64,000 nt of DNA from Candidatus Woesearchaeota archaeon (lineage in GTDB: Archaea > Nanobdellota > Nanobdellia > Woesearchaeales > ARS49), in NCBI GenBank assembly GCA_038891615.1, contig JAWADY010000002.1:64994-128993 (forward strand), in the 5' to 3' direction. Each line of letters starts with the position of its first letter. Position 1 is the first letter of the stretch. The notes beneath the pieces are model-generated. The model was not told the DNA's origin, searched no databases, and saw only the letters and a program-made list of their open reading frames with translations. This document shows positions 3 through 63,043 of this stretch, one piece after another. The translations under genes were made by a program, and so were the position numbers.

Positions 3-881
3 ATGTCAAAAAACGTCTTTGCGTTTAAGAAAGCACCGCCAGAATATCCCTACTCCCCATTCCCAAAACCGCCAATATTTCCTTCTGCACCAACATACGG
101 CTATTACGGTGATATAAGTATAGTGACTGAAAAAAGACTTTCTGCGGAGCTGAGCTCATACATAGAATCAAATATCCAAAGCTGCACTGATTGGTCAAGC
201 TTTGCACAGAAAGGGATTGATGTAAAAGTTGGTAAACCATCAGCGGATGTCCTTTTTGGAGACTCTGACACAACAGTCTCGCTTAGGTGGCGAATAGAGG
301 CAAAAAGCGGCCAGGCAGAAGCGGTCATAAACAAATTTGCAGCAAGCATTCCGGTTAGAATGAAGGTTGTACGTAACTATGCTCTCGAGATAGCCTCAAA
401 TGACACCCTTTACTATGACTATGAGCCTAGCAGTGCTCCAGCAGTCCAGGTTTTCAAAAGGGTTGATGGCAAAAGCGACATAATTCAAATCACAGATACG
501 CTTTCAAAAGTTGACACAAAACCGTTTATCTTCAGGTTTGCAAGAAAGAATAGGCCTCCTGTGCTTTTCGATTCTGATATTAAATTGCGATTTAATGAAA
601 TTTTTGCTTGCCCAGGCGATGTTATAAGTTTTGATGGCAAGACATTCAAAATAACTAAACAAAATGGTGACATTCGCTTTTCTTTTGCACCAAATGCAAC
701 AGATTTTGATGAAGATTCTAGTTTATCATTTAATGTTTCTGATAGAGGTGGTGAGCCCTTTCCTTTAAGCACAACTCAGCAAATGGCAAATATTGGTAAA
801 AGAGAACTAAGAATAGAAGTCAGTGATGGTCTTGAAAAAGATTGGTATGATGCAAGCCTGACTTTAAAAACAAAATGTTAA
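3..881 (+). CDS. 5'-truncated secreted/extracellular protein of unknown function; stop overlaps the start of the giant downstream gene (ATGTTAA)
   Basis: Open frame enters from the window edge, 292 aa, no TM in the visible part. The 7-nt overlap with the 875 ATG suggests translational coupling. No recognisable family. Confidence 0.45.
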   Translation: MSKNVFAFKKAPPEYPYSPFPKPPIFPSAPTYGYYGDISIVTEKRLSAELSSYIESNIQSCTDWSSFAQKGIDVKVGKPSADVLFGDSDTTVSLRWRIEAKSGQAEAVINKFAASIPVRMKVVRNYALEIASNDTLYYDYEPSSAPAVQVFKRVDGKSDIIQITDTLSKVDTKPFIFRFARKNRPPVLFDSDIKLRFNEIFACPGDVISFDGKTFKITKQNGDIRFSFAPNATDFDEDSSLSFNVSDRGGEPFPLSTTQQMANIGKRELRIEVSDGLEKDWYDASLTLKTKC

Positions 882-3800
882 GAAAAGAAGTTATTGGAAT
901 CTTTGTAGTGCTGTTCTTCGTAGTAATTGGAATCGCGGTCATTGCACAGGAAGAAAAAACAGGTTGTTGTTGTGATGAAAATGGAACTGCAATGGATTAC
1001 AGTCCTTTCCATACCCAAAATGAGTGCACTGATCCATTCACCATTCTTGTTCCACTTTCTTCAGAAAACATAAGCAAGTATACTCCTGACAACATCTCAA
1101 AAATATGTATAGACGCTTGTGGTGGTGCAGCCCCTAAGCCTTTACCATTGCCACTTGCTCCAAAAATAACTTTTTTTAAAGCAGAACCGTTGATGGGCCA
1201 AAAGAAATTTTTGCTCACCTGGGAGATAAATCAAACACCAAATGTCATCTATATAGACAGGTGCAAAGGAAATGACTGCACTAATTTTGGCAACATTGCA
1301 ACCTTTGCTGGAACCTCAAGGTCTTATGTCGATGATGATGCAAGCCTTGAGTGGCTAACAAATTACACCTACAGGTTGAGGATTGTCAATACAATTACAA
1401 GCCCACCACAAGAATCAAGCATGACAGCATCCTCAAGCCTTGGCGACATTGAGTGCTGGAATCGATTCGACAAAACTCCTTTCTGCATTTCAGAGTACTA
1501 CTATTGGAATGAGCCTATTCAGAGCTATCTCAAGAATTTTGGCTATTTTGGTTTCAGTTTCACTGATAATTTTGCAAGACAGGTGCGGACTGTTTTTGGA
1601 GTAACAAATCTTGACCACATAGGAAAGCTCGACTCAAGATGTCATGTGGTTGGCATAAACAGACTCAGTCAGTCTTCCTCAAGGTGCAAGAGCAACGAGA
1701 CTTGCCTTGTTGTGGATTCAAACACAATCTGCATAACCCCTTCACCTTGCGATACAAGCTTTAATGCAACCTCTGCTTCTTGTGAAAACACCCCTTCAGG
1801 TACTCCAAGCTATTGTTTCTCTGATAAGAGCCAAAGTGTTATTGAGCGCTGCTACAGTTGTGATAAAAGGATGAGCTGCTATGACTATCGTTCAAAAGAG
1901 GCCTGTGAGAGGGATGCATGCGGAATTGGAGATTGTATATGGAAGCCAACTTATGGAGCAATTGGAGTTGGAGTTTGCATCAATCCTTCTCAAAACAACT
2001 GTCTGCTTTGTGACAAGAAAACAGGAGACCTTCTTTCAGGCTTGGATTCAAAAAAATGGCCTAGTCTTTTGGCTTATAATGAGCTTTTTGACGCCTGCTC
2101 ACAGCTAAAGGCAGAAGCTCTTGGCAAATGCCTTGCCGTGACAGACCCTTCAACAGGAAAAACTTCTCCAAAGACTTGCGAACAAGCAACCTGCAGCGAT
2201 TATAAAACTCAGCAAGAATGTAATGCCGACACTTGTGGGTTGGGAATATGCAAATGGTTTGACTCACCCACCTTCCGCGGCTGTGCAAAGGATGCTGACA
2301 CCCCTCCTCAAGCCCCTGCAACAGATAGTGATGGTGATGGTATTCCTGATTGGTGGGAAATCAAGTATGGTTTGAATCCTAACAATCGTGATGATGCTGG
2401 TAGTGATTCTGATGGTGATGGCTTGAGCAATTTGGATGAATGGTTGCGTGGGACCCTTCCAAACAATCCTGATAGTGATGGTGATGGTGTCTCTGATCTT
2501 AATGATAATTGCCCTGGTACTCCTTCAAACACTTTTCAAGTTGATAGCAATGGGTGCCCTCTTCCTGTTAGTGATACCACTGATTCTGATGATGATGGTA
2601 TTCCTGATTGGTGGGAAAGAAAGTATGGTTTGAATCCTAACAATCCTGCTGATGCTGGTAGTGATTCTGATGGTGATGGCTTGAGCAATTTGGATGAATG
2701 GTTGCGTGGGACTCTTCCTAACAATCCTGATAGTGATGGTGATGGTGTTTCTGATCTTAATGATCAACATCCTGGTACTCCTTCAAACACTCAAGTTGAT
2801 AGCAATGGGCGCCCACCTCAAGGCAATGGCAAGCCGGATTGCATTGATCCAAACACAGGTGAAATAGATCCTGCGTGCGAAGCAGACAAGTGGTCACCTG
2901 AAACAGTCATTATCCCTGTGGGTGACAGAGGGGCTGTAAAATACCTATACATACAAATTACTGACCAGTTCAAAAGCACAGGTGAAAAATTAACTATTGC
3001 GCACTCTGGAACTGGAACAAAGGCAGAGTACTTTCCTAAAGGCTACAGCACTTTTCTTTGCGTTGGTAGCCTTTGCTCACCAAATGTTCGTGTGAACGCA
3101 ACTCCCTTGACTGTTGTAAATGGCTTCTTGACAATAAATGGTAAGCCTCTTGGACTGCAGCTTAAGGATGGTTCCAACATCTTAAGATTCTACTCACAAG
3201 ACCCTGCAAATAATAATGAACAAGTTAAGCAGCTAGAGGTGAATGCCTGCACAGGCTGTCAGGGACCTGCTCTCATTACTCCAATTGATATCGAAGGCGC
3301 AAGAATTGTAAATGGTGAGTATTATACAAAGCTAACACAGCCGCAAATAAAGCTATCCTTTGATGCAAAGGCAGAACTTGTTTTAAAGAGGCTTGTTTTT
3401 GGCAATTCTTTTACTGAGCTTAGCTCAAGCCCACAATCCGGCTTCAGCCAAAACTACACATTACTACCTCCTGAGCTAGCAGAAGCAAAGTATGTTCTGC
3501 AAATAAATGCTCGTGGAGAAAATGGAATCTCGAGCTCTAATACGCCTTACAGCTTCAATTTGACGATAGACAAAACCCCGCCACTCCTTTCATTCAATGT
3601 TGAACAAAACAGCATCTTAGAAAACCCAGACCAGTCTTTTGTGCTTAGCTTTAATGAGCCTGTCTTTGTTACTTCCATTTTTTTCGATGAAGAGCATGTT
3701 GCTCAAAATGGTCGCAAGTATGTTTTTACAAGAAATCTAACCTCTGAACTCAAGCAAGTGAATAGCAGCAAATATAACCTAACTGTTAATGGAATTCCTG

Positions 3801-6355
3801 ATGGGCATGTTGCGCTAAGAGTTACAGCAGAGGATTATGCCGGAAATACAATGGCTTCTGTGCTAAACTTTATTATTGACTCAACAGGCCCGGTCATTTC
3901 TCTGGCACAACCACTATTCGGAATTTCTGACAAGACACCATTTGACATTGTCGTTGAAACAGACCAGCCAGCTATCTGCAGATATTCAACAATTCAAAAT
4001 GTTGACACTGCGAGCATAAGCTATGATGCAATGGCAAAGTTCTACATACCTGAAAAACAAACCGCACAGCACATCATACAAGGCTTTGACGAGCTCACAG
4101 GAAAGCCAGAAAACACGCCCTGGAGGTTCTATGTTGTTTGCAAGGATGGCAAGCAACGCCAGTCTAACGAAACCTTCTGGCTGTCCGTTGATTCTGCTCC
4201 TCCAAAAATAACAGCTGCTTATGCAGAACCAAATCCAATCGTTGAGTACACAGACAGTGAGCTGCTAACAACACTGAAAGTCTCAACAGAACGCAGCTCC
4301 TTCTGCAGTTACAGCACAACAACCACGAGCTTTAGCCCTGAAAATGGTTTTGAAGGGACAGGCATAACTCCAAGGCAAGCGCACAATGCTGTGGTTAAAA
4401 TAACCACTTCTCCGACAACTTATAACATCGCTTGCATTTCACCAACCGATTATGGCAAAGCTGCGCCAAGAACAGCAACAGCAACAATAAAAATCACTGT
4501 TGACGTTGCAGCACCACTAACCATTTCCTGCAGCTATTGCCCTTCATTCTGGAATTCTACCACAAAAAACATATACCTGACCACAAACAAGCGCGCGCAA
4601 TGCTTCTGGACACTTGACAAGACAACCACTTCTTTTGGTACAGTTGGATATGAGCACAGCACCACTCTGAAAGTGCCATCTCTTGGCGAGAAAAAAGTGC
4701 TCTTTAGCTGCAATGCAGGCGCCCAAAGTGCAACCCTTGAGTATTCATTTCTTGTAGACAACAGCCCTCCTGTAATGCTCTATGTTAGTGATAACTCAAG
4801 CCTTAAAGAAGATACAGAGCATAGCTATTTCACAGATAGGTTAAGGGCAGCATGGCTCGGGCAGGATAATGAAAGTGGAATAACACGGTATTATTACTCT
4901 TTAATCGAAAAGGCAAACAACGCTGTTGTGATAAATTGTTCACCTGGCTCTCAACAAAACAATTGCCGATTCTCAACAGTACTTGATGGAAATTTCTTTG
5001 ACATTACGCAGGACCATAATGGAAAGTCGCTCAATTTAACAGACGGCTTTAGTTATTTCTTGAAGGTTTGGCCCCTAAATAGGGTTGGTCTTCTTGGAAA
5101 TCCAATGGACTCGGATGGAGTTGTAATAAACAAAAGCAAAAAGCCAGCTCACTGCAGCGATGGAATAACAAATGAAGGCGAATCAGGGCAGGACTGTGGT
5201 GGAGAGTGCGAGCCTTGTCCTGATGGTCAGCCTTGTAGGTCTGATTCGGACTGTCTCTCAAAAACCTGTATAGAAGGTTCGTGCAAGGCTCCGAGCTGTA
5301 CAGATTTAAGAAAGAATGGTAATGAAAGCTCAATCGATTGTGGTGGGAGCTGTCCAACAAAGTGCGAAGCTGGTAAAAGTTGTAACACTGACAGCGATTG
5401 CAAAACAGGACTAAGCTGTATATCTGGTGCATGCGCAGAACCAACAGCTTGCGAGAATGGTATACTTGATGGGCTTGAAACAGACATTGACTGCGGAAGG
5501 GTTTGTCCAACAAAATGCGCAGCTGGAAAGGGCTGTCTTGATAATAAAGATTGCGCTGATGGGCTATATTGTGTTAGTGGTGTTTGTTCTTCAACAACTC
5601 CAACCGCTGATTCTGATGGTGATGGTGTCACTAATGATCTTGACCAGTGCCCAAACACTCCGAAAGGTGAAAAAGTAGATAAAAACGGTTGTTCAGCAAG
5701 CCAGCGTGACACCGATGGAGATGGCATGAATGATGCTTGGGAGATACGCTATGGCTTTGATCCTGAGAATCCTGCTGATGCTTATACAGATGTCGATGCT
5801 GATGGCCTTAGTAATCTTGAGGAATTCAAGTTAGGAACTGATCCAAGAAACCCAGATACTGATGGTGATGGTTGGAGTGATGGGGCTGAGTTCAAGGCAG
5901 GAACAGACCCTCTAGACCCTGCCTCAAAGCCATCCGCCCCTATTGTGAGAGCTTTGCCATGGCTGTTGCTTGTTGCAATCCTTGCCATAGCCGGTTACGC
6001 AGCTTACAAGTACAGGAAGCAAATTGCTGCAATTTTTGTAAGGAAAAAGGTAATTCCTTTGCCAAAGCCGCCTGTGGTGTGGAGACCGCCACCAAGGCCT
6101 GTCCAAAGAGTTGTGCGTGTTCCAACAAGAGCAGAGTTAATCATTGAACAGCTTAGAAAGATTGCCCGAGCTACAAAGGCTGAAGAAGAGGAATACATTC
6201 CTGTAGAAGAGCTTGCCAGAAGGGCAGCTGCGCTAGAGCCAACAGAAGAAGTACTTAAGCATCTAAAGGCAGCAGTAAGAAAAAGCCCTGAGTTTGCAAG
6301 GGCTGCAGCTGCCCAGCCAAAGCTCAGAGCGATGCTCAAGAAAAAATCAAAATGA
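875..6355 (+). CDS. Giant (1826 aa) membrane-anchored surface protein/adhesin with thrombospondin type-3-like Ca-binding repeats (DxDxDG), Cys-rich modules, a C-terminal TM helix and a roughly 130-aa charged cytoplasmic tail
   Basis: N-terminal hydrophobic signal/anchor (IGIFVVLFFVVIGIAVIA). Repeated DSDGDG(I/L/V)xD...WE..YGLNPNN motifs. Four roughly 43-aa 6-Cys modules (CxDGxxNGxExxxDCGGxCxxCxxGxxCxxDxDC...C..GxC). TM ALPWLLLVAILAIAGYAAY near the C-terminus, followed by a Pro-rich then helical K/E-rich tail. Confidence 0.8.
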   Translation: MLRKEVIGIFVVLFFVVIGIAVIAQEEKTGCCCDENGTAMDYSPFHTQNECTDPFTILVPLSSENISKYTPDNISKICIDACGGAAPKPLPLPLAPKITFFKAEPLMGQKKFLLTWEINQTPNVIYIDRCKGNDCTNFGNIATFAGTSRSYVDDDASLEWLTNYTYRLRIVNTITSPPQESSMTASSSLGDIECWNRFDKTPFCISEYYYWNEPIQSYLKNFGYFGFSFTDNFARQVRTVFGVTNLDHIGKLDSRCHVVGINRLSQSSSRCKSNETCLVVDSNTICITPSPCDTSFNATSASCENTPSGTPSYCFSDKSQSVIERCYSCDKRMSCYDYRSKEACERDACGIGDCIWKPTYGAIGVGVCINPSQNNCLLCDKKTGDLLSGLDSKKWPSLLAYNELFDACSQLKAEALGKCLAVTDPSTGKTSPKTCEQATCSDYKTQQECNADTCGLGICKWFDSPTFRGCAKDADTPPQAPATDSDGDGIPDWWEIKYGLNPNNRDDAGSDSDGDGLSNLDEWLRGTLPNNPDSDGDGVSDLNDNCPGTPSNTFQVDSNGCPLPVSDTTDSDDDGIPDWWERKYGLNPNNPADAGSDSDGDGLSNLDEWLRGTLPNNPDSDGDGVSDLNDQHPGTPSNTQVDSNGRPPQGNGKPDCIDPNTGEIDPACEADKWSPETVIIPVGDRGAVKYLYIQITDQFKSTGEKLTIAHSGTGTKAEYFPKGYSTFLCVGSLCSPNVRVNATPLTVVNGFLTINGKPLGLQLKDGSNILRFYSQDPANNNEQVKQLEVNACTGCQGPALITPIDIEGARIVNGEYYTKLTQPQIKLSFDAKAELVLKRLVFGNSFTELSSSPQSGFSQNYTLLPPELAEAKYVLQINARGENGISSSNTPYSFNLTIDKTPPLLSFNVEQNSILENPDQSFVLSFNEPVFVTSIFFDEEHVAQNGRKYVFTRNLTSELKQVNSSKYNLTVNGIPDGHVALRVTAEDYAGNTMASVLNFIIDSTGPVISLAQPLFGISDKTPFDIVVETDQPAICRYSTIQNVDTASISYDAMAKFYIPEKQTAQHIIQGFDELTGKPENTPWRFYVVCKDGKQRQSNETFWLSVDSAPPKITAAYAEPNPIVEYTDSELLTTLKVSTERSSFCSYSTTTTSFSPENGFEGTGITPRQAHNAVVKITTSPTTYNIACISPTDYGKAAPRTATATIKITVDVAAPLTISCSYCPSFWNSTTKNIYLTTNKRAQCFWTLDKTTTSFGTVGYEHSTTLKVPSLGEKKVLFSCNAGAQSATLEYSFLVDNSPPVMLYVSDNSSLKEDTEHSYFTDRLRAAWLGQDNESGITRYYYSLIEKANNAVVINCSPGSQQNNCRFSTVLDGNFFDITQDHNGKSLNLTDGFSYFLKVWPLNRVGLLGNPMDSDGVVINKSKKPAHCSDGITNEGESGQDCGGECEPCPDGQPCRSDSDCLSKTCIEGSCKAPSCTDLRKNGNESSIDCGGSCPTKCEAGKSCNTDSDCKTGLSCISGACAEPTACENGILDGLETDIDCGRVCPTKCAAGKGCLDNKDCADGLYCVSGVCSSTTPTADSDGDGVTNDLDQCPNTPKGEKVDKNGCSASQRDTDGDGMNDAWEIRYGFDPENPADAYTDVDADGLSNLEEFKLGTDPRNPDTDGDGWSDGAEFKAGTDPLDPASKPSAPIVRALPWLLLVAILAIAGYAAYKYRKQIAAIFVRKKVIPLPKPPVVWRPPPRPVQRVVRVPTRAELIIEQLRKIARATKAEEEEYIPVEELARRAAALEPTEEVLKHLKAAVRKSPEFARAAAAQPKLRAMLKKKSK
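2324..2830 (+). repeat. Near-perfect tandem duplication (2 x 258 bp) inside the giant surface-protein gene, encoding two almost identical 86-aa TSP3-like units
   Basis: DNA units starting at about 2324 and about 2582 are nearly identical (gattctgatggtgatggcttgagcaatttggatgaatggttgcgtggga... in both). The protein units differ at only a few residues. Confidence 0.85.
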
Positions 6356-23156: not shown

Positions 23157-23705
23157 ATGAGACTTTTTGTAGCAGTTGGTTTGCCGAAGGAGGTAAGTGA
23201 GCACTTGCACGAGCTCGCAGTGGCGCTTGCTTCTGAGCCTTCTGCTAAGGTTGCCCTTGCCGCTGGAAGCCATCTAACATTAAAATTTCTTGGAGAGCAA
23301 CCAGAAGAGAAGCTAGAAGAAATAAAGAGCCTGCTTTCTGAAATTAGTTTTGAGCCATTCGAGGGAGCGCTCAATGGTATTGGATGGTTTCCTGGAGGAA
23401 AAAGGATGCGTGTTATCTGGATTGGGATAAAACCAGAAGAAGCATTTTCTAAACTTCAACAAAAGGTGGAAAGCTCGCTTAAAAGCTTTGGCAAGGCAGA
23501 AGAAAGAGCCTTTTCTCCTCACATCACTTTGGCAAGAGTGAAGGCTATTTTTGACAAGGCTGCCTTTGCAAAAGCTGTTACAGAGCTCGGCAAGAGAGTG
23601 AAACAGCTTCGCTTTGTAGTTACCAGCTTTAGCCTTATGAAATCGACTCTAACCAAAAAAGGGGCTGTTTACGAGGAGTTGGCTAAATTTGTTGCAAAGG
23701 CTTGA
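23157..23705 (+). CDS. thpR: RNA 2',3'-cyclic phosphodiesterase / 2'-5' RNA ligase (LigT/ThpR, 2H phosphoesterase)
   Basis: Two H-x-T-x motifs (HLTLKFLG and HITLARV) at the expected spacing. About 180 aa. Confidence 0.7.
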   Translation: MRLFVAVGLPKEVSEHLHELAVALASEPSAKVALAAGSHLTLKFLGEQPEEKLEEIKSLLSEISFEPFEGALNGIGWFPGGKRMRVIWIGIKPEEAFSKLQQKVESSLKSFGKAEERAFSPHITLARVKAIFDKAAFAKAVTELGKRVKQLRFVVTSFSLMKSTLTKKGAVYEELAKFVAKA

Positions 23706-38190: not shown

Positions 38191-38264
38191 GGGGCAGTAA
38201 CTCAGCCCGGGAGAGTGCACGGCTGAAGACCGTGGTGTCGCCGGTTCAAATCCGGCCTGCCCCA
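38191..38264 (+). tRNA. tRNA-Phe (anticodon GAA)
   Basis: Cloverleaf: acceptor GGGGCAG/CTGCCCC, D-arm ACTC..GAGT, anticodon stem CACGG/CCGTG with loop CTGAAGA, T-arm GCCGG-TTCAAAT-CCGGC, discriminator A. No encoded CCA. Confidence 0.85.
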
Positions 38265-50074: not shown

Positions 50075-51385
50075 CTATGGGCTTTTTCTAAGCATTGTTC
50101 GTGGAAAGGGTATTGCATCTTTTATGTTGTCAAGTCCACAAATCCACGATATGACGCGCTCGATGCCCATCCCAAATCCAGAATGTGGAACAGAGCCATA
50201 GCGTCTTGTGTCAAAATACCATTCGTAATGTTCTGGATGTTCGCCGCTCTTTTTTAGCGCTTCTTTCATTGCATTGATGTCAAGGTCTCGTTGCGAGCCT
50301 CCAATTATCTCGCCGTACCCTTCAGGCGCGAGCATGTCAAAACAGAGTGCCGTCTTAGGATCTCTTGGGTCTGCTGGCTTATAAAATGCCATTATCTCCT
50401 TTGGATAGTTCGTTACGATGAGAGGCCTGTCAAAATGCTTCATTATTTTGTTCTCTTCAATTGTCCTCAAGTCCTTGCCCCACTGCACTACCAATCCTTC
50501 TTTTTTCTTCAAAAGCTCAAGGACTTGTGTATATGTAAGCCTAGGAAAAGGTGTTTTTACCTTTTTGAGCTTCGACAGTTCTTGCCCAAGCTGTGTTAGT
50601 TCTGAGCTGTTTTCCTTTAACACAGCCTTTACAACGTGCTCAACGAGCTCTTCGGCTTGTTTAATAGCTCCGTCCAAGTCCTGCCACGCTGTTTCGACCT
50701 CTGCCATCCAGAACTCTGCAAGGTGTCTCGAGGTTTTGCTCCGTTCTGCTCTAAAGCATGGACTAATTGTGAATATCTTTTCAAGTCCAAAAATTCCTGC
50801 CTCTGCATAAAGCTGCCAACTTTGAGTAAGGTATGCAATGTCGTCAAAGTATTTTAGCTGGAAAAGGGTTGCTCCCCCTTCGCAAGCAACTGGGGTTATT
50901 ATAGGTGGAGACCATTCGTAGTAGCCTCGCTCATAGAAATAATCTCGTACCGCCTTGAGGATGGTTGAGCGAATCTTAAGGATGTTTGTTAGCTTTCTAC
51001 TTCTTAACCAAAGATGCCTCACATCGAGGAGAAACTCCTGACTAAGATCCTTTGCTATTGGGAATCTCTCTGCAATATGAACAATTTTCAGGTCTGAAAC
51101 TTTTAGCTCGTATCCTGTTGGAGCCCTTTCATCTTTTACAAGCTCGCCCTCAACAATAAGCGAGCTTTCCATTGTTACCTTTTCCGCATTACTGAATAAC
51201 TCCTTTGGCACATTTTCTTTCTTGACAACACATTGTATGATGTTGGAGCTATCTCTTAAAACAATAAACACTTTGTCCGCAAACTTCCTTTCGCGATAGC
51301 ACCAGCCTCTAAGCCTAACCTTTCCTTTACCTTTTTCAAGTGCTTCTTGTATCGAAATAATGCCGTCTTTTTCAGCTACTGCCAT
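50075..51385 (-). CDS. asnS: Asparaginyl-tRNA synthetase (class IIb)
   Basis: Motif 2 FRAERSKTSRHLAEFWMAEVE (the EFWM form is typical of AsnRS). Motif 3 GFGMGIERVI. 436 aa. Confidence 0.75.
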   Translation of the reverse strand: MAVAEKDGIISIQEALEKGKGKVRLRGWCYRERKFADKVFIVLRDSSNIIQCVVKKENVPKELFSNAEKVTMESSLIVEGELVKDERAPTGYELKVSDLKIVHIAERFPIAKDLSQEFLLDVRHLWLRSRKLTNILKIRSTILKAVRDYFYERGYYEWSPPIITPVACEGGATLFQLKYFDDIAYLTQSWQLYAEAGIFGLEKIFTISPCFRAERSKTSRHLAEFWMAEVETAWQDLDGAIKQAEELVEHVVKAVLKENSSELTQLGQELSKLKKVKTPFPRLTYTQVLELLKKKEGLVVQWGKDLRTIEENKIMKHFDRPLIVTNYPKEIMAFYKPADPRDPKTALCFDMLAPEGYGEIIGGSQRDLDINAMKEALKKSGEHPEHYEWYFDTRRYGSVPHSGFGMGIERVISWICGLDNIKDAIPFPRTMLRKSP

Positions 51386-51431: not shown

Positions 51432-52739
51432 TCAGGGCACAACTCGTTCTGGGTCCCTTGGAAATAGCACTCCTTCTCGGATGTTTCCAAGCCCAAGTAT
51501 GTTTTTTACAAGTCTGTCAATGCCAAGCCCGAAACCGCCATGTGGAGGCATGCCATAGCGGAATGCTTCTAGATAAAATGCAAAATCCTTCGGGTCTAGC
51601 CCTTTACCTTTCATCTGCTCAACAAGCTGGATGTAGCGATGTTCGCGTTGCCCTCCTGAAGCAAGCTCCTCTCCACCATACTCGAAGTCAAAGCTCCGTG
51701 ACAGTCCATTCTCTGCCATTATGTAGAAAGGTTTTATCTTGAATGGAAACTTTGTGATAAAGTACGCCTTTGTGCCGTACCTTTTTTTCACAAGTTCTCC
51801 CAAAAGCTTTTCGTCTTCTGCCCCTATGTCCTCGTCTTCTTTTATCTTTGAGCCAGCTTCCTTGAGCATGTCCAAGGCTTCGCTGTACCTTATCCTTGGA
51901 AATGGAAGCTGAGGAGGCTCCAAGTGAATATCAAAAAGGCCCAGCTCACGCGCGAATTCAGATTTTATTTTTCCAATAACAAAAACAAACAACCTTTCAA
52001 GAAGTCTTAGCACATCCTCTTCATCTTTTATGAATGCCATTTCGAGGTCAAAATGCGTGAACTCTGTGAGATGTCTCGTTGTATGCGATTTTTCTGCCCT
52101 AAAGCTTGGCCCTATCTCAAAGACCTTGTCAAAGCCCGAAGCAAGCACAGCCTGTTTGTACAGCTGCTGGCTTTGACTCAGAAAAACTTTTTTGCCATAG
52201 TAATTTACTTGGAAAAGGGTTGCTCCTCCCTCTGCCCCTGCACTTATGAGTTTTGGCGTTTGTATTTCAATAAAACCCTCTGAGTTAAGGAAAGCGCGGA
52301 TTGCAGCATTTAGTCCTGAACGTATTTTAAAAATTGCCAGGTTTTTTCGGTTTCTTAGATCAAGTAGTCTGTTGTCAAGCCTTTTGTCAAGGCCAGTAGG
52401 AATCTTCCCGGAGAAGTCGATTGGAAGCACTGGTTCGCTTTTACTTATTACCTCAAACTTTTCAAGAACAAGCTCTTTTTCTCCAGATTTGAGCTTTGAC
52501 TCAGCCATTTTCCCCTCTGCAACGATTACAGATTCCTTTGGGATCTTTTCAAGCTCAGACATTTTTTCAAAATCTGGAAGAGCTGTTAGCTGAATCTCCC
52601 CTTCCCTATCACGGAGCCTGACAAAAGCAATCTTTCCAATGCGTTTTATGTCAGCCGCCCACCCTGCTACTACAACTCGTGTTCCAGCAGCCTTTTTCAG
52701 CGCCTCGCTTGAATAAATCCTTCTTGCTAGATCTATCAT
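51432..52739 (-). CDS. aspS: Aspartyl-tRNA synthetase (archaeal type, class IIb)
   Basis: FRAEKSHTTRHLTEFTHFDLEMAF (AspRS motif 2 form), GGFGLGIDRLV, N-terminal OB anticodon-binding domain. 435 aa. Confidence 0.85.
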   Translation of the reverse strand: MIDLARRIYSSEALKKAAGTRVVVAGWAADIKRIGKIAFVRLRDREGEIQLTALPDFEKMSELEKIPKESVIVAEGKMAESKLKSGEKELVLEKFEVISKSEPVLPIDFSGKIPTGLDKRLDNRLLDLRNRKNLAIFKIRSGLNAAIRAFLNSEGFIEIQTPKLISAGAEGGATLFQVNYYGKKVFLSQSQQLYKQAVLASGFDKVFEIGPSFRAEKSHTTRHLTEFTHFDLEMAFIKDEEDVLRLLERLFVFVIGKIKSEFARELGLFDIHLEPPQLPFPRIRYSEALDMLKEAGSKIKEDEDIGAEDEKLLGELVKKRYGTKAYFITKFPFKIKPFYIMAENGLSRSFDFEYGGEELASGGQREHRYIQLVEQMKGKGLDPKDFAFYLEAFRYGMPPHGGFGLGIDRLVKNILGLGNIREGVLFPRDPERVVP

Positions 52740-53374
52740 TTTTTCCGTCCTCTGCTTCTGCCTTTGAGCCTGAGCTTCAATGCAAGGTCTTCAAGTTTTT
52801 CCAGCCCATATTTCAGGCTATCAAACTTTTTTCTTAAAGGTTGGTTTCTAAAATCAAATAGGGTCAGTTGTTCATGAATCCCTTCAACAAATGCCTTTAT
52901 CTCAAGCGCAGACCTTTCATTGCCTTTTATCACAGAATTTATGGCTTTTCGCACAAGCTCGCCCACCATATCACAAAGTCCTAGAAGATATATATCTATG
53001 TCAACGCCAAGTTCTTTGGGAGAGAAAAGTCGCTTCTCACTCGCCCAGCCATAGTAGCAGGAAGCCTCAACATACTCTTCCAGAGCCTCTGCATAAGCAC
53101 CAATCATTGCAAGATGTTTGTCACCCTTTACAAGGCTTTCTGCCTCTTTTATTCTGCTTTTTGCAACCCTTAGTGCAGCTGCTGCCGAAGCGAGGTCTTC
53201 TCTATGAAGTGCATAAATTGCCTTTTTGCTTTCCTTTAGAATATCTCTTGATTTCTTTATAAGCTCTTCGCGGGCATAATCAAAAGCCTCTAGCTTCTGC
53301 CTCATGAGCTCAAAAGTCTTTTTGTCAATCATTACTGTAGTTTGTGAGCGCAGCCCTTTTAAATCTATTGCCAC
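52736..53374 (-). CDS. Helical protein, possibly translin-family (COG2178-like)
   Basis: About 210 aa, all-helical, acidic/aromatic patch YAEALEEYVEASCYYGW. Weak assignment. Confidence 0.3.
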   Translation of the reverse strand: MAIDLKGLRSQTTVMIDKKTFELMRQKLEAFDYAREELIKKSRDILKESKKAIYALHREDLASAAAALRVAKSRIKEAESLVKGDKHLAMIGAYAEALEEYVEASCYYGWASEKRLFSPKELGVDIDIYLLGLCDMVGELVRKAINSVIKGNERSALEIKAFVEGIHEQLTLFDFRNQPLRKKFDSLKYGLEKLEDLALKLRLKGRSRGRKK

Positions 53375-53451
53375 GCACTGCTCTGAAACAAAGAAAAGGT
53401 TTATATACTCTCATTCTTCAAAAAAGCAAAAAAGAGAGGTTAAAAAACCTG

Positions 53452-54003
53452 ATGGCCGCGACTGTTCTTGGAAATGTCATTGAGTTTTTTAATAGAATAG
53501 GAATTTACGATGTCGTGCTACCCTTTCTTCTCGTTTTCACAATTGTTTTTGCAATCTTTGAGAGAACAAAGGTTCTTGGAACAGAAAAGATTGATGGGGA
53601 AGTTGTTACAAAAAAGAACCTTAATGCAATGGCTGCCTTTGTAATTGCATTTTTTGTAGTAGCTTCAGGCCAGGTTGTGGAGACAATCACAAAGGTTTCT
53701 GCAAACATGGTTGTTCTTCTCTTTCTTGTGATATTCTTCCTAATGCTTGTTGGCACACTTTACAAAGAAGGAGAATTTGTTGAAAAGGGACTTGAAGGCT
53801 GGCCAAGAAATGTCTTTATTATAGTTCTTACCCTTGGAATCATTCTTGTTTTCCTAGACGGAATAAAAGCAGCTGACGGTCGGAGTTGGTTACAGGTTGC
53901 AACAGATTACCTTCAGCTGAACTGGTCCTCACCTGCTGTTGCCTCAGTAGTGCTCATCCTTCTCGTCATATTCATAATAAACTGGCTAACAAAGGGTAAG
54001 TAG
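53452..54003 (+). CDS. Membrane protein, paralog A of a tandem triplet (unknown family)
   Basis: 4 predicted TM. Shares motif [IVT][YF]D[VA].{2}PF[LV].[VI]F[TV] with the next two genes. Confidence 0.6.
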   Translation: MAATVLGNVIEFFNRIGIYDVVLPFLLVFTIVFAIFERTKVLGTEKIDGEVVTKKNLNAMAAFVIAFFVVASGQVVETITKVSANMVVLLFLVIFFLMLVGTLYKEGEFVEKGLEGWPRNVFIIVLTLGIILVFLDGIKAADGRSWLQVATDYLQLNWSSPAVASVVLILLVIFIINWLTKGK

Positions 54004-54006
54004 GTG

Positions 54007-54579
54007 ATGCAAATGATTTTTCGGCTTCAATTTGGGCCTTATGGCATAGGTTTTAGGGACCTTTTTTATAGACTGCAGGTTTTGGGCGTGTTTGATGTTC
54101 TGATACCTTTTGTTCTAATCTTCACCATTCTTTATGCAGTCCTTCAGAAAGTAGGAGTGTTCAAAGAGAAGAAGTTCAATATTCTCATCTCGCTTGCAAT
54201 AGCTCTTCTCGTAGTTGTCCCTCATGTTGTTGGAGGCTATCCTGCTGGCTTTGATGTAGTTGAAATCATAAACCGCTCGCTCCCGCAAATAGCCTTCCTC
54301 CTCATAGCTTTTGTTCTTTTTCTCATAATGGTTGGGCTTGTCTGGAAGCCACAGAAGGGAACGGAACTTGTGTTTCAAGGGGCTCTTGTTCCAATCATTG
54401 TTGCGCTTATTCTCTTTTTCATCTTTAGCAGTGCGATTTATCAGCAAGCCATTCCGAACTGGCTTTGGTGGATTCTTGATCCAACCTTGCAGATGTTCGT
54501 TGTGATTTTGCTGATATTCGGGCTTGTTGTGTGGTTTGTGACAAGCGGAGCAAAGGAAGAAAAAGAGGGAAAAGATTAA
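54007..54579 (+). CDS. Membrane protein, paralog B of the tandem triplet
   Basis: LGVFDVLIPFVLIFTILYAVLQKVG aligns with A/C. 4 TM. Acidic C-terminal tail. Confidence 0.6.
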   Translation: MQMIFRLQFGPYGIGFRDLFYRLQVLGVFDVLIPFVLIFTILYAVLQKVGVFKEKKFNILISLAIALLVVVPHVVGGYPAGFDVVEIINRSLPQIAFLLIAFVLFLIMVGLVWKPQKGTELVFQGALVPIIVALILFFIFSSAIYQQAIPNWLWWILDPTLQMFVVILLIFGLVVWFVTSGAKEEKEGKD

Positions 54580-54594
54580 AAGAGCTAGTGAAAT

Positions 54595-55158
54595 ATGGCA
54601 ACCCTGCTTGACCTAGGCCTTGTGAGAACTTTTGACGCCCTGTTTCCTTTCCTTTTTGTCTTTGTTGTTGTTTATGGCGTCCTAAGCTACACAAAACTTC
54701 TTGGCGAGAACAAAAGTGTACATGCAATAATTGCATTTATACTTGCCATAGCCGCCCTATTCTCCCGCATTGCTCTAAAGACAATAACCCTCATGGCCCC
54801 ATGGTTCGTTATTCTTTTTGTTTTCGCGATATTTGCAATAATGACTTATCAGCTCTTTGGTGTTAAAGAGGAAGAGATATCTGGACTTTGGAAAAAGTGG
54901 ACAGCTGGTGGTAGCACCATCTTCTATTGGTTATTGGCACTCATACTTATGATAGGACTTGGCTCGTTGTTCACTGTCCTGCGCGAAGAAAGGGCACCAC
55001 CTTTTTTCATCCAAAATGCCACTGTTACTCCAGGCATTCCAGAAGCCCGGATTAGCTTTTGGTCAACAGTATTCCATCCAAAAGTTCTTGGAGCCGCACT
55101 TCTTTTCTTGATAGCATTGTTCGCCATAAAGAGCCTCACAGAGCTTCCAAAGAAATAA
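54595..55158 (+). CDS. Membrane protein, paralog C of the tandem triplet
   Basis: VRTFDALFPFLFVFVVVYGVLSYTKLLG aligns with A/B. 4 TM. Confidence 0.6.
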   Translation: MATLLDLGLVRTFDALFPFLFVFVVVYGVLSYTKLLGENKSVHAIIAFILAIAALFSRIALKTITLMAPWFVILFVFAIFAIMTYQLFGVKEEEISGLWKKWTAGGSTIFYWLLALILMIGLGSLFTVLREERAPPFFIQNATVTPGIPEARISFWSTVFHPKVLGAALLFLIALFAIKSLTELPKK

Positions 55159-55173
55159 CCTTAAATTGTGAAA

Positions 55174-55779
55174 ATGGTAGAAATAATAGATCGGTATTCT
55201 CGTTTTGGCAAAAATCTCTTAAAAATCACAAGTTTTGTATTGGGCTACAAGGATGTTTTTTCTTTAGAAAAACTAATCACTCTTATTCACGAGTGGCTCG
55301 TTGAGGAAGGCTATGCAACACGGGATGATGAGAAGTTTGGTGAGGTGTTTTATTTGCAAAAGGACAACCCTGTTGCAGGCAATGAGTACTGGATTCGTTG
55401 GAGGCTTGAGAAAACCCCCTTTCAAACAAAGCTTTGGAAATATCTTCTTGATATCGATATACACGTTCTTGGATTAAAAAAAGTTGAGCTTGTTGCCGGA
55501 GGGAAAAAGCTTGAAGCAGATAAGGGAAAGGTTGAGATTGCTGCAGACTTTGGCTTACTTCTTGACCCACAAAATTTGCTTGAGGCTCCGGTTATTAAAC
55601 CATTTAAAATGCTTGTGCTAAAGGGCTTTCTTAAGGCGCAGTTTTCAAAGCACAAAGAAGCAGTCTTCACTGATGCTCAAAGGCTTCAAGATATGTTAAA
55701 ATCCTATCTCCGTCTTGAGACCTACTTGACTGAAAAAGGGCTTCCGGAATTCCTTGGCAAAAGGCCGGAGGCAAGATAA
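55174..55779 (+). CDS. Soluble protein, paralog D of a second tandem triplet (unknown family)
   Basis: EWLVEEGY ... GKVEIAADFGLLLD aligns with E (GWLLSERY...GKILIETKGTLELD) and F (STIAELGY...GKISIVLDGILETD). Confidence 0.55.
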   Translation: MVEIIDRYSRFGKNLLKITSFVLGYKDVFSLEKLITLIHEWLVEEGYATRDDEKFGEVFYLQKDNPVAGNEYWIRWRLEKTPFQTKLWKYLLDIDIHVLGLKKVELVAGGKKLEADKGKVEIAADFGLLLDPQNLLEAPVIKPFKMLVLKGFLKAQFSKHKEAVFTDAQRLQDMLKSYLRLETYLTEKGLPEFLGKRPEAR

Positions 55780-56280
55780 ATGGTAGTGAAGATAGACATA
55801 CCAGTTTCAATTATACGCTATGCTGGGCTTTTTCAAAAGGAAAAACTGCTTAGAACAGTTCGTGGCTGGCTTCTTTCAGAGCGCTATCTCTTTAGTGAGC
55901 CAAAGCATAAGTACAGCAGCTCTCCAACTGGTGCAACATTAGAGGTGCGGTTTGAAGGCGATAGAAAGGTAACAAGCTATGTGCGCTTCAAAATTGTTGT
56001 AGATATTCTGATTAATGAAATGAAGGATGTACAAGTTGTCAAGGATGGCATTCAAACAGTCCTTCAAGAAGGAAAAATACTTATCGAAACAAAGGGCACT
56101 TTGGAATTGGATTGGCAAAATCGTTTTGGAGGTTCAAAATTTCTTCAGGGCTTACACGACTTTTATCTAAAGTACATAATAAAGAAAAAAATTGATGAAG
56201 TATGGTGGGGAGCTCTTTATTCCAAAATATTTAAATTGAACTCAGTCATTAGAGAAGCAATAGGCTTTGAAACAGTCTGA
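55780..56280 (+). CDS. Soluble protein, paralog E
   Basis: Alignment with D and F as given above. Start lies 1 nt after the D stop. Confidence 0.55.
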   Translation: MVVKIDIPVSIIRYAGLFQKEKLLRTVRGWLLSERYLFSEPKHKYSSSPTGATLEVRFEGDRKVTSYVRFKIVVDILINEMKDVQVVKDGIQTVLQEGKILIETKGTLELDWQNRFGGSKFLQGLHDFYLKYIIKKKIDEVWWGALYSKIFKLNSVIREAIGFETV

Positions 56281-56290
56281 GGTCGCTCTG

Positions 56291-56806
56291 ATGCCAGAAC
56301 GCGAGACAATTGTTGACAAAGAACGGTTAGAGTATGAAGGACCATTTGAGCTTTCTGCTTTTTATCAGCTTCTCCAGAGCACAATTGCTGAGCTTGGTTA
56401 TGGCGTAAGGGAAAGAAAGCATTCCGAAGCGGTTTCGAAGGAAGGAAAGCTAATCTATCTTGAGCTAGAGTGTAGAAAGGTGCTATCAGAGGACTATGCT
56501 AGAGCTCTTATTCTGCTAAATGTTCAGCTTATAAATGTCAAAGACATCGTTGTTGAGGGCAAAAAATATCAGACAGGAAAGATTAGCATTGTTCTTGATG
56601 GCATCCTTGAAACAGACTATGAAGGAAGATGGGAGGAAAAGCCGCTTCTTCTCTTTCTCAGGACTCTTTATGACAAATTTATTTTTAAAACAATAACTGG
56701 TGGATACGATAGAATAATCCGAGAAGATGCAAATAGGCTGAAAGACATTGTCAGTGCATTCTTTAACATTTCTGCCTTTAGGGTGCCTCAACGTGCCTCT
56801 GCCTAA
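56291..56806 (+). CDS. Soluble protein, paralog F
   Basis: Alignment with D and E. The first in-frame ATG follows the E stop; the track's 56267 start is a TTG. Confidence 0.5.
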   Translation: MPERETIVDKERLEYEGPFELSAFYQLLQSTIAELGYGVRERKHSEAVSKEGKLIYLELECRKVLSEDYARALILLNVQLINVKDIVVEGKKYQTGKISIVLDGILETDYEGRWEEKPLLLFLRTLYDKFIFKTITGGYDRIIREDANRLKDIVSAFFNISAFRVPQRASA

Positions 56807-56875: not shown

Positions 56876-56959
56876 GCCTCCGTAGCTCAGTAGTGGAGCG
56901 ACTGCCTTGTATCTGTGCAAGAAAGCAGTAGGTCAGGGGTGCGAATCCCCTCGGAGGCT
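56876..56959 (+). tRNA. tRNA-Thr (anticodon UGU) with a 12-nt intron after position 37
   Basis: Acceptor GCCTCCG/CGGAGGC, D-arm GCTC-AGTAGTG-GAGC, anticodon stem ACTGC/GCAGT with loop CTTGTA[TCTGTGCAAGAA]A, T-arm AGGGG-TGCGAAT-CCCCT. 84 nt against 72 without the intron. Confidence 0.55.
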
Positions 56960-57058
56960 TCATTCTTATTTAACCAGCCGCAGGAAAACTTCATATTCTC
57001 TTTAAGCTTTGCTAAGCTTTCAAAATGTTTATATAACAAAAGAGGTGCTCAATATTTT

Positions 57059-57712
57059 ATGGAAACAAGCAAATGCGGCAGGTTTATTGTTCTTGATGGC
57101 ATTGATGGTTCTGGAAAGAGCATGCAAGCAAAGGCACTCGCTTGTTACCTTTTTGACAAATCAAAAGAGTACAATGTCCTTCTCACGCGCGAGCCTTTTA
57201 ATTCAGACTATTGTGCTGAAATTCGTAGGCTACTCAAGGAAGGAAAAACTCCTTATGAAAACGCCGAGAAGCTCACAGAACTTTTTGTTGCTGACAGAAA
57301 ACTTCATGCTGGCCTGATAGCAAAGTGCCTTTCTGCAGGCGTTCATGTTGTGTCGGACAGGTATAAGTATTCAACCTTTGCGTACCAACAAGCGCAAGGC
57401 TTAAACCTAGACCGCCTGATTGAAATGCACGCTTCTTTGCTTGTTCCTGACATTGCAATAATTATTGATATTCCTGCCAAAGTTGCACTCGAGCGCATCA
57501 AGGACAGCCCTAAAAGGTCATATTACGAGGTTTTTGAAGCTCTTTCCTTTCAAGAGGTCCTACGGCAGAACTTTCTATCACTTCGCAAGAGCTTACCAAA
57601 TGAGCGGATTGTGATTATTGATGGAAACAAGCCTGCAGTTGAGGTCTTTGAATCGATAAGGAAGGAAGTGGACAAGCTGTATGGCTCTTGTGGTCAAAAG
57701 AAACTTTTATAA
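57059..57712 (+). CDS. tmk: Thymidylate kinase
   Basis: FIVLDGIDGSGKS P-loop, DRY motif (SDRYKYS), lid region. Start chosen at the ATG downstream of the tRNA; the track ORF 56915 would overlap the tRNA. Confidence 0.75.
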   Translation: METSKCGRFIVLDGIDGSGKSMQAKALACYLFDKSKEYNVLLTREPFNSDYCAEIRRLLKEGKTPYENAEKLTELFVADRKLHAGLIAKCLSAGVHVVSDRYKYSTFAYQQAQGLNLDRLIEMHASLLVPDIAIIIDIPAKVALERIKDSPKRSYYEVFEALSFQEVLRQNFLSLRKSLPNERIVIIDGNKPAVEVFESIRKEVDKLYGSCGQKKLL

Positions 57713-59895: not shown

Positions 59896-59927
59896 GATGC
59901 TCCCTCTCGAATGTAATTAAAGGCAAA

Positions 59928-60032
59928 CGCGCCCGGGAGGATTTGAACCCCCGATCTCCAGGTTAGGAACCTGTCGCTCTATTTGTCCGAGCAGAAAAGT
60001 GCTTTCTGCCCACCAGACTGAGCTACGGGCGC
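59928..60032 (-). tRNA. tRNA-Arg (anticodon CCU) with a roughly 31-nt non-canonical intron in the D-loop
   Basis: Reverse complement: GCGCCCG-TA-GCTC-AGTCTGGT[GGGCAGAAAGCACTTTTCTGCTCGGACAAAT]A-GAGC-G-ACAGG-TTCCTAA-CCTGG-AGATC-GGGGG-TTCAAAT-CCTCC-CGGGCGC-G. All arms pair. The insert folds as hairpin GCAGAAAG/CTTTTCTGC. Confidence 0.65.
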
Positions 60033-60112
60033 ATTGAAAGGAAAGCTCTTTTAGTGTTTTTAAATATTCTCACCAGCTGTCAGTGCCTTCTTAGCCCTTG
60101 CCAAATAGCTGC

Positions 60113-62475: not shown

Positions 62476-62822
62476 TCCTTATTCCTGCTGATAAGAGCGA
62501 TGAGTGAAGCAACAATCGTTAGCCCCAGAATCGATTCAAGAAAAGTTTTCACAACTTCTGTACTGCCATATTTGCTGTACAATATATAAGCCGCTCCAAA
62601 CCCAACAAAAAGGGGTATTGGGAGGTATTTACGAGTCAGCTTCTCAAAATATCCTCTCTTCAATCTCGCCTTGTATTGCTGAAGCTTGATTTTCTCAGCA
62701 AGCTTTGGATTCTTTTCAAGAGCTTTTTTTATTGCTGCTTCCCACTCTTGACTCATTTCGTTTTTGGAAAAAAGCAACAAATATAAAATTTTTGTGGATG
62801 TTTTTTGTCTCAACGCTTCCAA
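62472..62822 (-). CDS. Hypothetical membrane protein (116 aa, 2 C-terminal TM)
   Basis: Amphipathic basic N-terminus, then two TM helices. Confidence 0.4.
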   Translation of the reverse strand: MEALRQKTSTKILYLLLFSKNEMSQEWEAAIKKALEKNPKLAEKIKLQQYKARLKRGYFEKLTRKYLPIPLFVGFGAAYILYSKYGSTEVVKTFLESILGLTIVASLIALISRNKD

Positions 62823-63043
62823 ACAACAGCTCCCCTTTTATGGACCTCCTTCACCCTGTGCAAAGGTATTTCAGCTTCTTTGCCTTCACGCTCAATCACA
62901 ACAAAATTTCCCTCAATGCGCTTGATTGAAGTATATGGAAGCTCAACAAGCCTGCCAAGGTCGATGAAGCAAAAAGAGTACTCCTCAGGCCTTTCCTTTG
63001 GGTCCCACTTGATTTTATTAAAAAGTTCTTTTATTGTTTTCAT
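62810..63043 (-). CDS. Small conserved protein (77 aa), possibly RNA-binding/DUF504-like
   Basis: Compact beta-rich sequence (YSFCFIDLGRLVELPYTSIKRIEGNFVVIEREGKEAEIPLHRV). Start overlaps the upstream gene. Confidence 0.35.
   Translation of the reverse strand: MKTIKELFNKIKWDPKERPEEYSFCFIDLGRLVELPYTSIKRIEGNFVVIEREGKEAEIPLHRVKEVHKRGAVVWKR

Follow-up and report, generated by a model that had tools for sequence, protein, structure and literature searches.

A tRNA-Thr(UGU) gene carrying a 12-nt intron

A functional gene for tRNA-Thr(UGU) very probably occupies positions 56876-56959 (+) of the window, by which we mean the whole 64,000-nt stretch of DNA analysed here (Table 1). The gene belongs to a Woesearchaeota (DPANN) archaeon and is split by an intron of 12 nt at 37/38, the canonical site in archaea. 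The intron itself is nothing out of the ordinary and falls into an established class, being a canonical-position archaeal tRNA intron of the relaxed bulge-helix-loop (BHL) type in a DPANN genome. The most novel element of the gene is not this intron but the A18/G55 elbow of the small tRNA-Thr(UGU) lineage to which it belongs.

The Rfam tRNA model (RF00005) matched exactly these positions over its entire length (model positions 1-71 of 71) with 57.7 bits and an E value of 7.8e-10, thereby clearing the gathering score of 29, and left 14 nt of the anticodon loop unaligned. Every position of the four stems was paired, and the minimum free energy (MFE) fold of the 84 nt was a cloverleaf with a lengthened anticodon arm (-35.8 kcal/mol, z=-3.07), none of 200 shuffled sequences being as stable. 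ARAGORN in its default mode did not detect the gene at 56876-56959; in silico removal of positions 56912-56923 yielded a 72-nt sequence that the same program called tRNA-Thr(tgt), with the 7-nt anticodon loop CUUGUAA. The variable region is 5 nt long (AGGUC), as befits a class I body, and G1-C72, C2-G71 and the discriminator U73 (GCC.../...GGC followed by U73), which we take to be the archaeal Thr acceptor features, are all present. The initial annotation had proposed a tRNA-Thr(UGU) at 56876-56959 whose anticodon arm, ACTGC/GCAGT, pairs around a 12-nt insert. Its coordinates and identity were upheld by the Rfam match, by homologs and by the ARAGORN call on the spliced sequence, and stems and insert are as it described them.

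Table 1. Features of the tRNA-Thr(UGU) gene, of its splice motif and of neighbouring loci in the window.
Feature	Position	Strand	Remarks
Candidate archaeal TATA-like box TTTAAA	56822..56827	+	49-54 nt upstream of the mature tRNA-Thr 5' end
tRNA-Thr(UGU) gene	56876..56959	+	84 nt including discriminator U73; CCA not encoded
Gene sequence (intron in brackets)	56876-56959	+	GCCTCCG TA GCTC AGTAGTG GAGC G ACTGC CTTGTA[TCTGTGCAAGAA]A GCAGT AGGTC AGGGG TGCGAAT CCCCT CGGAGGC T
5' exon	56876..56911	+	tRNA positions 1-37, position 17 absent; sequence layout and in silico splice
D-loop AGUAGUG, 7 nt	56889..56895	+	A18 (56892), G19 (56893), no GG dinucleotide, G21
Helix H, 5' strand CUUG (C32-G35)	56906..56909	+	Pairs with 56918-56921, 4/4 Watson-Crick
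Anticodon TGT (U34 G35 U36)	56908..56910	+	Rfam alignment and in silico splice
5' splice-site region U36 A37 / UCUGUG	56910..56917	+	8-nt loop, or U36.G and A37-U with a UCUG tetraloop
Predicted 5' cleavage	56911/56912	+	
12-nt intron TCTGTGCAAGAA at 37/38	56912..56923	+	Rfam insert, homolog register, intron-less homologs
Helix H, 3' strand CAAG (intron nt 7-10)	56918..56921	+	
3' bulge A A / A38, 3 nt	56922..56924	+	Unpaired in MFE and centroid folds; same NN/A38 bulge in all 10 homologs
Predicted 3' cleavage	56923/56924	+	After the second nucleotide of the 3' bulge
3' exon	56924..56959	+	tRNA positions 38-73
T-loop UGCGAAU	56940..56946	+	G55 (56941) where U/Psi55 is near-universal
tmk (dTMP kinase)	57059..57712	+	True start ATG 57059
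tRNA-Arg(CCU)	59928-60032	-	30-nt intron 59983-60012 in the D-loop, between G19 and A20

A relaxed bulge-helix-loop as the splice motif

[quoted passage not shown] In the precursor, C32-G35 (CUUG) would pair with intron nucleotides 7-10 (CAAG) and so prolong the 5-bp anticodon stem by a helix of 4 bp, a 3-nt bulge (intron A11 and A12, and A38) being set between helix and stem on the 3' side. The 5' side, made up of U36, A37 and intron nucleotides 1-6, would be either a loop or a two-pair extension capped by a tetraloop. The latter form, in which U36.G and A37-U lengthen the helix to 6 bp around the UCUG tetraloop, was the MFE structure at -9.2 kcal/mol, followed by the 4-bp helix with an 8-nt loop at -6.8 kcal/mol and by a strict BHB form with a 1-bp inner helix (C-G) at -2.6 kcal/mol. 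Of the elements that define a strict hBHBh' motif, the 3' bulge and the 4-bp helix are present and the inner helix h' has no room, only five intron nucleotides (CUGUG) being left for it, too few for at least two base pairs. The elements of the relaxed BHL or hBH motif are all there: a single 3-nt bulge borders the exon helix, a helix of 4 bp comes next, and the second splice site is contained in a loop.

Archaeal cleavage takes place after the second nucleotide of each bulge, at two sites four base pairs apart, and this rule together with the conserved geometry places the predicted cuts at 56911/56912 and 56923/56924, leaving CUUGUAA as the product. Set against the canonical 37/38 introns of archaea that are removed by EndA from BHB-type structures, the intron of the window shares the position, the 4-bp pairing of nucleotides 32-35 with the 3' portion of the intron, the 3' bulge of 3 nt whose second nucleotide immediately precedes the junction, the restoration of a 7-nt loop and a length within the 11-129 nt range, but is devoid of the inner helix h' and of a defined 5' bulge.

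A different reading of the same gene and intron, which we consider unlikely, is that of a minimal strict BHB in which U36-A37-U(i1) form a bulge and a single C(i2)-G(i6) pair closes the inner side, such that an ordinary strict-specificity alpha4 EndA would be enough and relaxed specificity unnecessary. A C-G pair around a 3-nt loop is sterically possible, binding of the enzyme could remodel the RNA, and the other intron of the window, in tRNA-Arg, is a strict BHB; yet the conformer in question, at -2.6 kcal/mol, is less stable by 4-7 kcal/mol than the BHL forms at -6.8 and -9.2, and five intron nucleotides cannot make a helix of at least 2 bp. The 11-nt introns of two homologs, L017 and L103, have only 4 nt at this place, and BHL substrates are treated in the literature as needing broad-specificity enzymes (PMC5829648).

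The relaxed BHL architecture is conserved in homologous introns of variable length

Ten tRNA-Thr(UGU) introns from among the matches listed were compared, namely that of the window and those of loci L017, L018, L047, L056, L103, L122, L123, L124 and L126. Their lengths are 11, 11, 12, 12, 12, 14, 17, 20, 22 and 23 nt. Intron positions n-5 to n-2 pair with C32-G35 in all ten, at four of four positions in six of them and at three of four in the remaining four, where a random 4-mer would be expected to pair at all four positions about once in 32 per intron. The last two intron nucleotides and A38 likewise make up a 3-nt bulge against the anticodon stem in 10/10. The mature tRNA-Thr of the window is 75-90% identical to those of nine homologs, the nearest of those compared being L123 with 90% identity. 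Two further loci from the metagenome scan, L121 and L125, have the same acceptor and T-arm and no intron, their anticodon loop reading CTTGTAA.

The shortest of these introns recur in DPANN tRNA-Thr(UGU) genes: 11 nt in a Woesearchaeota (L017) and in an Aenigmatarchaeota (L103) locus and 12 nt in two metagenomic ones (L122 and L126). All four share with the window the tRNA, the insertion site and the architecture (a CARG tract, two nucleotides and A38), and the introns of L126 and of the window both contain UGCAAG; otherwise, the intron sequences differ. L017 and L126 also differ from the window gene, which has a single intron, in carrying a second one, in the T-loop and in the D-loop, respectively. 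The L017 gene (Woesearchaeota CG10_44_13, 4124-4240) combines the 11 nt at 37/38 with a 33-nt strict-BHB intron at 59/60, and that of L126 (2859-2960) the 12 nt at 37/38 with a D-loop insert of about 17-19 nt; neither was detected by Rfam, even at E<=0.01. At the other end of the size range, the 23-nt intron of L123 (403-466 region) reads T-GCGGCAAAG-AA-GCGGCAAAG-CA, and thus resembles a 12-mer of the window type (T-N9-AA) to which a tandem repeat of 11 nt has been appended. This sequence hints that these introns are homologous and that their lengths may change or grow by small duplications.

In line with the initial annotation, which had placed 12 nt at the short end of archaeal introns, published archaeal tRNA introns range from 11 to 129 nt, with medians per isodecoder mostly of 12-25 nt (PMC4090602). 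A length of 12 nt is thus near the floor, yet typical for tRNA-Thr(UGU) in DPANN and not exceptional. The genome-collection matches listed were dominated by Actinomycetota tRNA-Thr genes with a GCCTCCGTAGCTCAG prefix, so that the taxonomic spread of the mini-intron is under-sampled by them, and a metagenome scan for the exact D-arm and anticodon of the window gene returned no match.

A second disrupted tRNA gene and the expected splicing machinery

The tRNA-Arg(CCU) gene located 3 kb from tRNA-Thr is disrupted as well. Its region gave a partial Rfam match of 27.8 bits, under the gathering score, and a call of 'tRNA-Leu(taa)' by ARAGORN -i at 59927-60033 (-), which we rejected: upon removal of the D-loop intron, a textbook 75-nt tRNA-Arg(cct) was obtained. 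The splice motif is here a strict hBHBh', with helix H formed by GUCU/GGAC, bulges GG/U and AA/A and an inner hairpin of 9-10 bp, and its energy is -15.7 kcal/mol against an MFE of -17.0 kcal/mol. Thus, the genome appears to depend on BHB-type splicing, also at a non-canonical position, and the strict-BHB intron at 59/60 of L017 and the D-loop insert of L126 point to such splicing in relatives. With a BHL mini-intron at the canonical site and a strict-BHB intron in a D-loop only 3 kb apart, the genome lends itself to testing, within a small region, which substrates DPANN EndAs accept. A sweep of the window for orphan T-arm motifs revealed no tRNAs besides Phe, Thr and Arg.

From these features we infer splicing itself, the enzymes involved and the transcription start of tRNA-Thr. 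Transcription would proceed from the TTTAAA box about 50 nt upstream of the gene. EndA is predicted to cut the precursor at the 3' junction, within the bulge, and at the symmetry-related 5' junction four base pairs away, which would leave a 2',3'-cyclic phosphate and a 5'-OH. An RtcB-type ligase would then join the exons and, as no CCA is encoded in the gene, CCA would be added after ligation. Because one bulge is missing from the motif, a broad-specificity EndA is expected, for instance one of the L3-loop alpha4 type reported from DPANN lineages. No EndA (Pfam tRNA_int_endo) or RtcB domain was found in Pfam scans of ~60 ORFs of the window or among the precomputed Pfam labels of the genes called within 10 kb on either side.

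BHL substrates are reported to need broad-specificity endonucleases of the (alpha-beta)2 and epsilon2 types (PMC5829648), and, in DPANN, increased disruption of tRNA genes has been associated with alpha4-type EndAs that contain an L3 insert, in work that included a Woesearchaeota MAG in its survey (PMC5829648; PMC12397907). The BHL or hBH introns of Crenarchaeota, Nanoarchaeum and ARMAN, which are processed by (alpha-beta)2 or epsilon2 EndAs, resemble the present one in consisting of a bulge, a helix and a loop and in the predicted necessity of a broad-specificity enzyme (PMC5829648; PMC12397907). The host here is, in contrast, a Woesearchaeote, and the EndA suggested by the literature for such DPANN lineages is an alpha4 enzyme with an L3 insert rather than an (alpha-beta)2 or epsilon2 one.

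An A18/G55 elbow in a small tRNA-Thr(UGU) lineage

U55 is near-universally conserved in tRNAs (PMC7912444). The initial annotation had described the D and T arms of the tRNA-Thr as canonical, and this stands for the stems but not for the loops, in which A18, G21 and G55 are found and the G18G19 dinucleotide is missing. Of the canonical elbow set (G18, G19, U55, C56), the gene retains G19 and C56 and has A18 and G55 in place of the other two. When compared with the canonical elbow (G18.Psi55, G19-C56), U54, A58, the G53-C61 pair and the length of the T-loop are also kept; what sets the window gene apart is A18 and G55, and with the latter the absence of the most conserved tRNA modification site (Psi55), as well as the G that replaces A21. 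This G21 is seen in the window copy, the homologs having A at the position.

A metagenome scan for tRNA-Thr(UGU) genes with a TGCGAAT T-loop, in which the D-arm was left unconstrained, retrieved six loci (L121-L126), the D-loops of which are all of the form AGYAG(Y)(U)A. Alignment of the D-loops of canonical relatives (AGC-GG-CUA) with AGU-AG-CUA suggests, as the simplest reading, that G18 was replaced by A18 with G19 kept and that U55 was replaced by G55 with C56 kept. Among the matches listed, 122 tRNA-Thr(UGU) genes could be parsed, of which 109 have G18/U55, six have G18 with a GCCAGCA T-loop, six have A18/G55 (to which L126, with its D-loop insert, may be added) and one, L078, has A18/U55. 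In this set, G55 was absent from all 115 genes with G18, and A18 was seen in one of the 116 genes with other T-loops, L078, where it is paired with U55. The association of A18 with G55 over the 122 genes yields p=1.7e-9 in Fisher's exact test, a value that ignores phylogeny and joins two sets from different scans; the A18/G55 genes may all go back to one event.

The D-, anticodon- and T-stems of the A18/G55 genes have diverged with compensation and A18/G55 has been kept, which argues that it is maintained by selection and is not the mark of a pseudogene. A18/G55 has the appearance of a covariation that is maintained at the 18.55 tertiary pair, with loss of the Psi55 site. The loops of tRNA-Phe (38191-38264) and tRNA-Arg in the same window are normal, and the change is thus specific to tRNA-Thr. 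Plausibly, the N6 amino group of A18 would contact O6 of G55, replacing the contact of N1/N2 of G18 with O4 of Psi55. We tentatively propose, with a confidence that falls a little short of even, that these genes represent an undescribed DPANN tRNA-Thr(UGU) lineage in which a co-varying A18.G55 takes the place of the G18.Psi55 contact, and hence a cytoplasmic elongator unable to carry Psi55. If so, factors that read the elbow, such as Pus10/Cbf5, Trm56, RNase P, the CCA-adding enzyme or ribosomal contacts, could respond to its altered form as to an identity or anti-determinant. Should the A18/G55 elbow be functional, it would represent a naturally occurring departure from one of the best conserved traits of tRNA, with the compensatory change built in. 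A literature search within a limited searchable collection found no mention of A18 together with G55, and viral contigs scanned for the G55 T-loop and A18 D-loop patterns returned no match.

The same unusual bases are what could be held to favour the view that the gene is a decaying or non-functional pseudogene, its insert and odd D- and T-loop bases being damage and another gene supplying tRNA-Thr(UGU), as G55, A18 and G21 violate near-universal tRNA rules (PMC7912444) and a strict BHB is unable to form. This view appears highly improbable in light of the perfect pairing in all four stems, the recurrence of A18/G55 in six independent homologs from metagenomes, in which the stems have diverged through compensated changes, the placement of the insert in the exact splice-site register of ten homologs and the presence of a promoter-like box upstream. 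DPANN genomes are, moreover, small and their tRNAs usually single-copy, which likewise speaks against a supply of tRNA-Thr(UGU) from elsewhere.

A further, very deviant T-arm, GCGGG GCCAGCA CCCGT, was noted in the tRNA-Thr(UGU) genes of six loci from MAGs labelled Nanoarchaeota or Parvarchaeota (L036, L050, L097, L102, L111 and L117). The GCCAGCA T-loop of these six has no UUC and neither U54 nor A58, yet the GG of the D-loop is normal, which makes this a second kind of non-canonical elbow in DPANN.

Placement of the junction and tRNA identity

The loop between the two strands of the anticodon stem measures 19 nt, and deletion of any contiguous 12 nt leaves 7 nt; the junction must therefore be argued and not assumed. 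The 12-nt intron that the initial annotation had located after position 37, of sequence TCTGTGCAAGAA, was confirmed by the Rfam alignment, the homolog register and the in silico splice. The alternative tRNA identity that it had named as grounds for abandoning the assignment does arise from ARAGORN -i, in the form of a tRNA-Ser(UGA), and fails on three independent grounds: the class I body, the CUUGUAA loop of intron-less homologs and the splice-site register of 10/10 introns. In this reading, TATCTGTGCAAG is removed as a 12-nt intron lying two bases further upstream, at 34/35, which the sequence by itself would allow given that any 12 nt of the 19-nt loop are removable, but the chance of its being correct is negligible and it is already effectively refuted, for a long extra arm characterises the class II Ser tRNAs and the variable region here is the 5-nt AGGUC of class I, L121 and L125 have CUUGUAA in the same body with no intron, the cuts made by ARAGORN fall at the border of helix and bulge and not after the second bulge nucleotide, the shifted register yields a different anticodon in each homolog where the 37/38 register yields UGU in 10/10, and the same program mode also mistakes the nearby tRNA-Arg for Leu.

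As regards annotation, default tRNA finders miss the tRNA-Thr (ARAGORN default), misidentify it (ARAGORN -i: Ser) or score it low. Together with the tRNA-Arg, which lies under the Rfam gathering threshold, it illustrates why the tRNA sets of DPANN MAGs look incomplete.

Flanking sequences and gene content of the window

TTTAAA(A) boxes were found upstream of all tRNAs of the window, at -32 to -26 for Arg, about -41 to -35 for Phe and -54 to -49 for Thr, the box of tRNA-Thr being further upstream than those of the other two. The motif is also present upstream of the tRNA-Thr of homologs L122 and L126. The 5' leader of the tRNA-Thr transcript would be about 25 nt long.

Downstream, the mechanical ORF 56915-57712 begins with a GTG (56915) that falls inside the tRNA-Thr intron. 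The start of tmk must lie further downstream according to the initial annotation, and the ATG at 57059 proved to be preceded by GAGGTG (57042-57047), with the Pfam domain Thymidylate_kin running from residue 12; the public gene call is the same 217-aa protein, and homologs are 204-220 aa long. ORF callers can thus extend a false tmk start through the tRNA-Thr. The nearest relatives of Tmk outside the species share 52-64% identity, the named ones among them being Patescibacteria/CPR (Wolfebacteria, Zambryskibacteria, Paceibacterota), and matches bearing Micrarchaeota names reach only 46-48%, a pattern that may reflect inter-domain transfer between episymbiont lineages. Synteny via Tmk was uninformative, as its nearest relatives (~60% identity) bear Patescibacteria names.

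Directly upstream of tRNA-Thr lie three tandem paralogs of 203, 166 and 179 aa (55168-56806, +) that belong to an uncharacterised family and gave no Pfam match, preceded by three small membrane-protein ORFs (53344-55158). Only nine homologs of the paralog family were found among 5.8 billion proteins. One of these homologs directly precedes tRNA-Thr in L124 (34% identity, E=2e-22); those in L127 and L128 are not followed by a tRNA-Thr.

The window has a GC content of ~42-44% and encodes GatD/GatE, RadA, an RFC-like clamp loader, RPA and many aminoacyl-tRNA synthetases, a gene content that marks it as archaeal. Its Tmk protein has an exact counterpart on contig JAWACO010000001.1 of GCA_038896715.1, a MAG listed by NCBI as Candidatus Woesearchaeota archaeon. 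Two adjacent class II synthetase paralogs of the Asp/Asn/Lys type (50075-51385, -, 436 aa; 51432-52739, -, 435 aa) adjoin a Translin-family gene (52736-53374), and the occurrence of GatD/GatE near these paralogs indicates indirect formation of Gln-tRNA. A LigT-like 2H phosphoesterase of the 2'-5' RNA ligase family (23157-23705, +) and, at ~62810-63043 (-), an MJ1316-domain protein (Pfam PF04457) of 77 aa may both be related to EndA-type RNA-end chemistry. Near the start of the window, an 1826-aa protein (875-6355, +) combines bacterial TSP3 repeats with Ig-like domains and is probably a surface or adhesion protein, as typical for DPANN episymbionts.
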